From: a virus
Direction: 5' to 3' (one strand)
DNA length: 64,000 nucleotides
Virus record (IMG/VR): IMGVR_UViG_2852667396_000001
Location: 2,060-66,059 of that record
Position 1 is the first letter of the stretch. Every line of letters starts with the position of its first letter. The notes under the pieces are model-generated. The model did no database searches. It was not told where the DNA came from and saw only the letters and a list, made by a program, of their open reading frames with translations. Below, piece by piece: positions 17,218 to 17,920 of the stretch. The position numbers and the translations under genes are program-made.

Positions 17218-17272
17218 AAAAAAATGGCCCGCTTATGTGCGGGCCTAATGGGAATTCTTCAAAGGAGTAGGG
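17218..17272 (-). ncRNA. Putative small RNA, copy A
   Basis: Promoter-like elements, 5' ACUCCU seed, terminator; paralogous to copy B. Confidence 0.5.
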
Positions 17273-17457
17273 CGACCTTACCCCCTGTTCTGTAAATGCC
17301 AAGTGAAAAGGATGTCGCAAAAGAAGAAAGCCCGCACGGGGCGGGCTCTCTGTAACACTTGGGGCGCCGATCCGTCAGCACGGCCAGTTTGCAATCGCCA
17401 GGATTGCCAGCTCACTAGTGGCACGATGAAGGGCAGATACAAGAAGCTTCAGTAGAG

Positions 17458-17703
17458 CTATCCGGCGATCCCTCCTTTGGACATATCGATCTCAAACGCA
17501 ATTTCTTCAGCGAGCTTTTGGACGCATGAGCTGTCTGCAAGCTTGGCCAGGTTGATACCTGTCGTACAAAACATCGCGTCATACTCGGGCTGCCTGACGA
17601 AGACGGTAGCTGTCCATCCGTTGATCAAAATGCAATCTACCTGGTGCCCTGGCAGACTCCGTTCTAGATCCTCTGTCAGCGATATCTTCTTCCAAGTGTG
17701 CAT
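17458..17703 (-). CDS. DUF1652-like small protein
   Basis: 81 aa, resembles Pseudomonas DUF1652 proteins. Confidence 0.55.
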   Translation of the reverse strand: MHTWKKISLTEDLERSLPGHQVDCILINGWTATVFVRQPEYDAMFCTTGINLAKLADSSCVQKLAEEIAFEIDMSKGGIAG

Positions 17704-17822
17704 GATGGCGTACTAGCGTGGCAGTGATGCACGATTGACATGCTGCTGCTGAAAAAGTGCCAACGTCAGATGCGAGACGCCCAGCGCTGGCCTGGCGTTT
17801 TGCAATCAATTCTCAGACAAAG

Positions 17823-17875
17823 AAAAGCCCGCGATGGGGAGTGCGGGCTTGAAGGGATGTTCACTAGGAGCAGGG
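17823..17875 (-). ncRNA. Putative small RNA, copy B
   Basis: Same architecture as 17218-17307. Confidence 0.5.
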
Positions 17876-17920
17876 GTAACCATAGGCGCGCGCCTGTGAA
17901 AAGGTTGTGAAAGGTTAGGC

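Follow-up and report, generated by a model that had tools for sequence, protein, structure and literature searches.

Two prophage units with two-component-type promoters belong to a family of predicted small RNAs also carried on Pseudomonas chromosomes

Introduction

OmrA and OmrB of enterobacteria are two adjacent paralogous small RNAs (sRNAs) that are activated by an OmpR-family regulator and linked to envelope stress. Both are core genes with a conserved 5' seed, conserved terminators and a divergent middle, and their targets and Hfq dependence have been demonstrated. The sRNA PinT of Salmonella was acquired horizontally, and its promoter answers to the host two-component regulator PhoP; to our knowledge, PinT has no chromosomal paralogue family of the size described below. 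Small RNAs that target mRNAs are typically built from a single-stranded 5' seed with a terminator after it, and two half-sites phased by 11 bp that end 10 bp before the -10 element form the layout of a PhoB-type activated promoter. The lambdoid prophage NC-SV of E. coli encodes the sRNA svsR, which, according to the accessible text of its report, lowers expression of the maltoporin gene and cuts infection by other phages (PMC12803456). For the response regulator ColR, the accessible part of a binding-site study gives a 16-bp consensus, (T/C)(T/C)NA(C/G)NN(T/C)TTTTT(C/G)AC, built on seven footprinted sites that include TTCACA-CTTTT-TTCACA and TTCACT-ATTTT-TTCACC (PMC2689224). The same text describes the P. 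putida dgkA promoter (PP1636) as ColR-responsive and ColR-bound, and reports perfect ColR sites upstream of dgkA orthologues (PMC2689224).

Here we analysed a 64,000-nt stretch of DNA (the window) from an IMG/VR provirus record of 66 kb. An earlier note on this DNA had described two paralogous promoter-to-terminator cassettes, units A and B, on the minus strand, and a new reading of the sequence found both of them in place. Box, spacing, -10, 5' CUCCU and terminator are all kept in homologues, which bears out the description as paralogous cassettes. With a probability of roughly 0.6, we propose that each unit is a separate gene for a regulator-activated, trans-acting sRNA of about 51-56 nt, a prophage version of a host family, with ColR as the likeliest activator.

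Results

Two minus-strand units share one promoter-to-terminator build

Unit B begins with the regulator box TTCACA-N5-TTCACA (17895-17911, minus strand), whose half-sites recur at an 11-bp period and replace a -35 element. A 10-nt spacer (17885-17894) leads from the box to the -10 hexamer TATGGT (17879-17884), after which the sequence reads CCCTGCTCCTAG, with 7-8 nt between TATGGT and GCTCCTAG. Hairpin arms at 17843-17850 and 17825-17832 enclose a 10-nt C-rich loop, and the T run extends to about 17819. The predicted RNA would be about 54 nt long (17819-17872), with an unpaired 5' (U)GCUCCUAG seed region, the terminator hairpin and a U tail; its start was placed from the distance to the -10 and from the point where invariance begins in the alignment of homologues.

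Unit A, on the same strand, reads TTCACT-N5-TTTACA (17291-17307) and, 10 nt further, TAAGGT (17275-17280), a -10 assigned from both the sequence and the alignment. It continues with CCCTACTCCTTTG, also given as ACTCCTTTG. A terminator scan placed the hairpin at 17226-17245 and a run of seven T at 17218-17224, so that the predicted RNA of about 51 nt (17218-17268) would consist of a 5' ACUCCUUUG seed region, this hairpin and a U7 tail. The order of elements is thus the same in both: a pair of TTCAC-type half-sites with an 11-bp period, a 10-nt spacer, a TAnGGT hexamer as the -10, CUCCU, and a GC hairpin followed by a run of T. The predicted RNAs come out at about 51-56 nt, not at the 50 nt estimated earlier.

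Within the window, the 17-nt box alone is not beyond chance, with two matches against 1.19 expected and at least two in 35 of 100 shuffles. The composite pattern, made up of the second half-site, the -10 and CCCT, is beyond chance: it matched twice against 0.19 expected, and at least two matches arose in 1 of 100 shuffles. A covariance model recovered exactly two sites in the window, unit B at 104.4 bits and unit A at 61.7 bits, the next best site scoring 13.7 bits. The real proof that the units are no chance patterns lies in their conservation elsewhere rather than in window statistics.

The units belong to a large family of predicted sRNAs

Conservation was followed by three motif scans. A pattern for the promoter only found 33 loci on viral contigs, all of them full homologues (30 of B type, 3 of A type). 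A pattern for the B-type 3' hairpin only found 37 viral loci, 25 of which were common to the two scans. Among these 37, the exact box pattern occurred in 25, a box with unaltered spacing and one or two changes in 11, and a degenerate box in one (L044), so that half-sites and phase were kept in 36 of 37 loci chosen by the 3' hairpin module alone. Since hairpin-selected loci keep the promoter elements, the terminator is conserved together with box, -10 and 5' motif. The third scan, of species-representative genomes, gave 68 loci, every one a homologue. A Pseudomonas title stands on 66 (one P. syringae, the others species of the fluorescens lineage), and the other two are titled 'gamma proteobacterium L18' and 'Leclercia tamurae'. 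Across the three scans, every locus but L044 carries the same box, spacing, -10 and 5' motif, and the box of unit A is the same in the A-type homologues L007, L013, L017, L052, L078 and L115. The earlier note had named conservation of the terminator alone as the finding that would go against it; with box, -10 and CUCCU conserved as well, that objection falls. The note had suggested searching Pseudomonas genomes with a covariance model; of 151 genomes sampled from the host genus (that of genome G001), 101 had hits at E <= 0.001, up to six per genome.

The alignment used below comprises 98 of the 99 unique units extracted, one (L024) having been dropped because it ran off the end of its locus. 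L116 was left out by the T-run test, and the extraction patterns also missed L025, L044, L125 and L128; L025 has an insertion after the -10, and L044 has the degenerate box.

Catalogue searches gave no family for the units. At the gathering threshold of Rfam 15, no model matched either unit, and in the whole window Proteo-phage-1 alone passed, at 28554-28630; this agrees with the earlier statement that no family had been described. The best Rfam scores within 17100-18000 were 21.3 bits (ctRNA_p42d, over the terminator of orf81, and rimP), each below threshold. The best sub-threshold sRNA match for both units was RF02278, at 17.5-18 bits (25.7 for L125); membership in that family was rejected on these scores, far under its gathering score of 50. 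Unit B had no blastn match among GenBank phage records or PLSDB plasmids, and a 1.5-kb region searched against GenBank phage records gave three hits, of which two, mapped back, covered flanking genes only. Together the scans and searches describe a large, uncatalogued family of predicted sRNAs on host chromosomes and prophages.

The units are non-coding and the hairpin is conserved

Measured from the -10 to the hairpin end, the 98 aligned units are 49-56 nt long, and the modulo-3 classes hold 26, 51 and 21 of them. Because unit lengths span all three classes, there is no conserved reading frame. The ATG inside TATGGT is missing from 30 of the 98 units, and 24 of the 68 that have it contain a stop within the unit. 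A small peptide was considered as the product and was ruled out by these indels and by the loss of the ATG. The earlier statement that neither unit contains an ORF needs rewording: mechanical ORFs do overlap the units (e.g. 17806-18045 and 17051-17320), but their frames are not conserved.

Constraint falls on the predicted RNA elements. The -10 is separated from the 5' motif by 5-6 nt that vary among the 98 units; after them comes CAGCTCCTA in 70 units and a close variant in the others, with CTCCT present in all 98. The B-type loop keeps a CCCCAU-like motif. In the alignment, 86% of helix positions pair, a share that falls to 56% or less once the partners are slid, and three hairpin pairs show compensatory change, altered on both sides in 17 cells. 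The minimum-energy fold of unit B leaves the first 22 nt unpaired (z = -2.9), and that of unit A, at -16.7 kcal/mol (z = -3.6), leaves the 5' 24 nt unpaired. Base-pairing sRNAs of the Hfq type are marked by a promoter of their own, an intrinsic terminator that ends in a U tail, and the lack of a conserved ORF, and the units have all three. Alternatively, the 5' motif might be conserved for a function of the DNA, such as an operator where transcription starts, and not for one of the RNA.

Copies on host chromosomes

Clustering of flanking sequences separated one large phage cluster, in which most viral loci group with 10-14 genome loci, from a genome-only cluster that covers 24-25 species and that one viral locus (L020) joins on the downstream side; several small clusters were also found. 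In about 24 species, a B-type copy sits at a chromosomal locus that is not phage DNA. At L064, a member of the genome-only cluster, the unit lies between a convergent gene for a small glycine-rich lipoprotein and a divergent gene for a LysE-family exporter, with an AraC/DJ-1 regulator beyond the exporter; none of these is a phage gene. Weaker covariance hits (about 43-55 bits, usually one per genome) correspond to a further 'core' sRNA, lineage-wide and built in the same way, upstream of genes for glycine-zipper proteins. The promoter of one core sRNA (L127) has three phased half-sites, including a 16/16 match to the ColR consensus just upstream.

The earlier note had described prophage cassettes, but the family is not confined to prophages: it is mainly one of host chromosomes that phages also carry. 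The prophage copies are versions of a predicted sRNA family that also stands on the chromosome of the host lineage.

The promoter points to an OmpR-family regulator, most likely ColR

A consensus scan found no sigma-70-type -35/-10 pair in 16500-18500. The half-sites end 10 and 21 nt before the -10, neither at a usable -35 distance, and the -10 hexamer is TATGGT in 68 units, TAGGGT in 17, TAAGGT in 10 and TACGGT in 3.

Unit B matches the ColR consensus at 15 of 16 positions. The close fit claimed earlier thus stands for unit B, but unit A matches at 11 of 16 and position 9 is missed by 94 of the 98 family boxes. Mismatches to the consensus number 0 in 1 box, 1 in 15, 2 in 43, 3 in 32, 4 in 1 and 5 in 6, so that at most one mismatch occurs in 16 of 98, and unit A has five. 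The misses cluster at positions 8-10, with position 10 missed in 77 of 98. The dgkA promoter in genomes G001-G003 reads TTCACG-CTTTT-TTGACT, 10 nt, then TAGTTT or TAGCTT, which is the layout of both units. When these three complete genomes were scanned for this layout (TTSAC-N6-TTSAC-N11-TAnnnT), it occurred 15 times, against once for a reversed-pattern control; the 15 were 11 sRNA-like units (short, terminated and non-coding), three dgkA promoters and one site before a mucD-like gene. By such sequence comparison ColR is most likely the regulator, the best candidate we have and a lead.

It is also conceivable, although fairly unlikely, that the same sRNA genes are driven by another OmpR-family regulator, either CreB or a paralogue not yet characterised, with a preference for CCT ahead of the second half-site. 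The family keeps C at positions 9 and 10, where 7 of 7 footprinted ColR sites have T, and unit B matches exactly the TTCAC-N6-TTCAC tag (cre/blr) given for CreB/BlrA in the accessible text of PMC4689548; unit A has TTCAC-N6-TTTAC. CreB itself is weakened as a candidate because, in 5 of 5 related genomes, the region upstream of creD, which marks the CreB/BlrA regulon, carries TCCACA-N5-TCCACA at a different distance to an ATAAAT-like -10 and has no TTCAC repeats, whereas the sRNA boxes always have TTCA. The protein-gene promoters that share the layout in the three genomes, dgkA, a ColR target, and one other only, speak for ColR over any such regulator, as does the perfect ColR consensus at the core sRNA promoter.

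The units lie in the immunity region of the prophage

A CI-type repressor gene (HTH and S24 peptidase by Pfam/PHROG; 20683-21378, minus strand) heads a row of same-strand genes that ends at the units. Directly upstream of unit B is a DUF2388 gene (17921-18337, minus strand; Pfam E = 3.8e-16), which lacks a terminator of its own, and its transcript would end at the terminator of unit B. Of 45 viral loci, 30 have a homologue of this gene, as do 9 of 68 genome loci; where its position was mapped, it lies upstream of the unit in every case but L040. Between the units lies an 81-aa ORF (17458-17703, minus strand) with its own terminator (17325-17351); it has no Pfam or PHROG match and is common only to L017 and L078. 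A phrog_12397 gene (16956-17174, minus strand; PHROG E = 1e-32) starts about 45 nt after the unit A terminator, and in related loci the box of an A or B unit precedes the start of this gene by 133-165 nt.

Related prophages show the same-strand order cI, an 82-aa protein (orf82), DUF2388, one unit, phrog_12397, a zinc-ribbon protein and DUF1654. The single unit there is B, or A as in L115, and because either follows DUF2388, A and B occupy the same slot. The present window carries both, split by the 81-aa ORF.

The OL/PL region (15340-15395, minus strand) has operators ATAAGCnnGCTTAT at 15357-15370 and 15382-15395 that overlap a TTGACG-17 nt-TATATT promoter, and the same ATAAGCnnGCTTAT palindrome stands in the cI-cro gap at 21402-21415. 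This operator palindrome matches eight times in the window, against 1.16 expected, and no shuffle of 100 reached eight. Since OL/PL is beyond the units, they are inside the immunity region. Two phage readings were tried on this ground and rejected: the units are not the PL promoter or a CI operator, as OL/PL is elsewhere and the box occurs nowhere else in the window, and they are not a lambdoid PL leader of the nut/put type, as the CI operators and promoter are about 1.8 kb further leftward and the box is absent from the cI-cro gap. Lambda keeps rexAB at the corresponding place in its immunity region, and by this analogy expression of the units in the lysogen is plausible.

The setting raises the question of a role in cis, in which the unit would be a regulated promoter with a leader or terminator that gates phrog_12397, the zinc-ribbon protein and DUF1654, or an insulating terminator of the cI operon, the RNA being a by-product. 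In prophages the unit always stands 40-70 nt upstream of a same-strand gene, and unit B is the sole terminator for the DUF2388 gene. At the chromosomal locus of about 24 species, however, a convergent gene follows the unit and leaves no same-strand gene to gate, and similarity between loci stops right after the T run. With its 5' end unpaired, the RNA has no predicted alternative antiterminator fold, a plain terminator needs no invariant 5' motif, and the real PL with its CI operators is at 15340-15395; all this makes a cis role very unlikely.

Transcript and target searches

Of 24 sequencing runs, all in the form of assembled Logan contigs, four (X1, X2, X4 and X6) were compared with 16900-18400. 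In the RNA-labelled runs, short pieces whose own flanks are unlike those of the units match the predicted transcribed parts of A and B; contigs cannot show RNA ends or prove transcription, and these matches are not counted as evidence. In the literature on ColR/ColRS and sRNA, on prophage Hfq sRNAs and on P. fluorescens sRNAs, we found no ColR-dependent or prophage sRNA of this kind among the matches listed.

Candidate targets were sought in the window, in five genomes and next to the chromosomal copy, a range too narrow for the results to count as absence of targets. A search of five genomes for an ATG preceded by the exact complement of the B seed returned 11 hits, fewer than its reversed control, and the ORFs downstream had no gene in common across genomes. 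Against 296 candidate ribosome-binding regions of the window, duplex energies of both 5' regions were no better than those of shuffled RNAs: the best duplex of unit B was -25.4 (shuffled mean -23.7, minimum -26.8) and that of unit A -19.3 (shuffled -19.0). Genes next to the chromosomal copy had no evident complementarity to the unit. That the RNAs are decoys, whose C-rich motifs (5' CUCCU in both units, the CCCCAU loop in B-type ones) titrate a G-rich sRNA or an RNA-binding protein, is most improbable: the B-type loop motif is conserved along with the 5' motif and the limited searches yielded no mRNA target, but no partner was found, we know of none for these RNAs, and a single-stranded 5' seed with a terminator is how mRNA-targeting sRNAs are usually built.

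Discussion

We propose the following working model for the units as sRNA genes. The two half-sites, standing 10 bp upstream of a weak TAnGGT -10 without a -35, would be bound for activation by a response regulator of the OmpR/PhoB class, most likely host ColR, a regulator of envelope and metal stress in the ColRS system, which senses excess metals, named as Zn, Fe, Mn and Cd in the title of PMC4074579. The A or G immediately ahead of CUCCU would be the first nucleotide of an RNA with an unstructured, C/U-rich 5' end complementary to Shine-Dalgarno sequences, then the GC hairpin, in B-type units with a second C-rich motif in its loop, and a U tail. By pairing with ribosome-binding regions, such an RNA would repress its target mRNAs, with Hfq as a probable partner. 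The phage keeps its units between cI and PL, beside other genes expected to be expressed in lysogens, so a lysogen might respond to the same signal by producing a host stress sRNA in additional or variant copies.

The earlier note had further suggested a part in defence against superinfection. Its support is positional, the immunity region, and the seed-complement and duplex searches gave no target. From the position and from the analogy with svsR, as far as the accessible text of PMC12803456 describes it, such a role is a possibility.

A wider evolutionary account is possible but tentative. Temperate phages of the P. fluorescens lineage may have captured a host sRNA gene together with its two-component promoter and kept it as cargo in a fixed slot where the cI operon ends, with two 'alleles', the A and B seeds, both of them present here. 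The lysogen might over-produce or diversify a host envelope-stress sRNA on a host signal, and in this way reprogram surface proteins and susceptibility to other phages, while the same type of promoter drives a lineage-wide core sRNA. If this were true, much of the output of a ColR-like regulator would run through uncatalogued small RNAs.

If the RNAs are made as predicted, soil- and plant-associated Pseudomonas carry an uncatalogued sRNA family in up to six copies per genome. The driving two-component system, probably ColRS, would gain an RNA arm, having so far been described through protein-coding targets only. Prophages would plug copies of a host regulatory RNA into host signalling from the immunity region, a compact form of lysogenic conversion. 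The family is also a comparative data set for target prediction, with about 100 variants, two seed types, and chromosomal and phage contexts.

Among described systems, OmrA/OmrB resemble the units as adjacent paralogues with OmpR-family activation (predicted for the units), a conserved 5' seed and terminator, a divergent middle and a link to envelope stress. They differ in organism, sequence and regulator, and are core genes rather than prophage-borne; targets and Hfq involvement are predictions for the units. PinT is similar in a promoter tied to a host two-component regulator (again predicted here) and has no sequence or structural relation to the units. RF02278, the Betaproteobacteria toxic small RNA, is likewise short, with C/U-rich motifs resembling an anti-Shine-Dalgarno sequence and a terminator. 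As a lambdoid-prophage sRNA, svsR comes nearest in setting, and the change that it makes to host expression in a lysogen is the kind of role the earlier note proposed; it belongs to another host, has no sequence relation to the units, and its accessible report text mentions no two-component box, and its effect on phages was measured whereas here one is only possible (PMC12803456). The closest promoters are those of ColR (dgkA/PP1636, PP0035 and PP3766), which in the accessible text share the TTCAC-type half-sites at an 11-bp period, and whose site TTCACA-CTTTT-TTCACA differs from unit B in the spacer only (PMC2689224). The units depart from these promoters in having CC or C in the spacer where the seven-site consensus has T (94 of 98 at position 9), and in their products, which are predicted to be short terminated RNAs and not membrane proteins.

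sRNA-like units in related genomes

Two additional members of the family were located in the related complete genome G001, at positions 1501-1592 of locus L125 and 1501-1593 of locus L128. A distance of 5.6 kb separates the L128 unit from the copy at locus L131, and therefore this region of G001 carries two units, like the window. A 'core' sRNA-like unit built to the same plan as units A and B was found lineage-wide (loci L127, L129, L132 and L136-L147), at 1501-1594 in L127 and at about 1001-1090 in L136-L147. Its TTCAC half-sites are followed by 10 nt, a -10 resembling TAGGGT, a 5' end rich in C and a terminator. 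Glycine-zipper protein genes lie downstream of it in L136, and in L127 it adjoins a TetR gene. No Rfam match to the core unit reached threshold, and the only match reaching threshold in the whole window was Proteo-phage-1 RNA (RF03044) at 28554-28630 on the plus strand (73.8 bits vs. a gathering score of 42). One compared locus, L054, comes from OZ240079.1, a 7.1-Mb record titled Leclercia tamurae. Its unit and flanks are near-identical to counterparts from P. kilonensis and P. brassicacearum (L055, L072, L104). The record could be a mislabelled or mixed one.

Organization of the prophage control region

Palindromic operators ATAAGCnnGCTTAT are present at 15357 and 15382 in OL/PL (15340-15395, minus strand) and at 21402 in OR (21355-21415), where a weaker one occupies 21355. 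PL itself (TTGACG-17 nt-TATATT) follows the terminator located behind the DUF1654 gene. Two genes on the opposite strand (18418-20362, plus strand), one of the RhuM family and the other a 308-aa gene without known family, separate the 82-aa gene from the DUF2388 gene. The latter two are near each other in several relatives (e.g. L029, L030 and L033), and the opposite-strand pair seems to have been inserted into the cI operon.

Repeats upstream of creD

TCCACA-N5-TCCACA was conserved about 60-90 nt upstream of creD, the marker gene of the CreB regulon, in all five genomes compared (L117-L121). This conservation suggests that the tag of CreB, the rival candidate activator of the units, is likely TCCAC in this lineage, rather than the TTCAC described for E. 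coli and Aeromonas.
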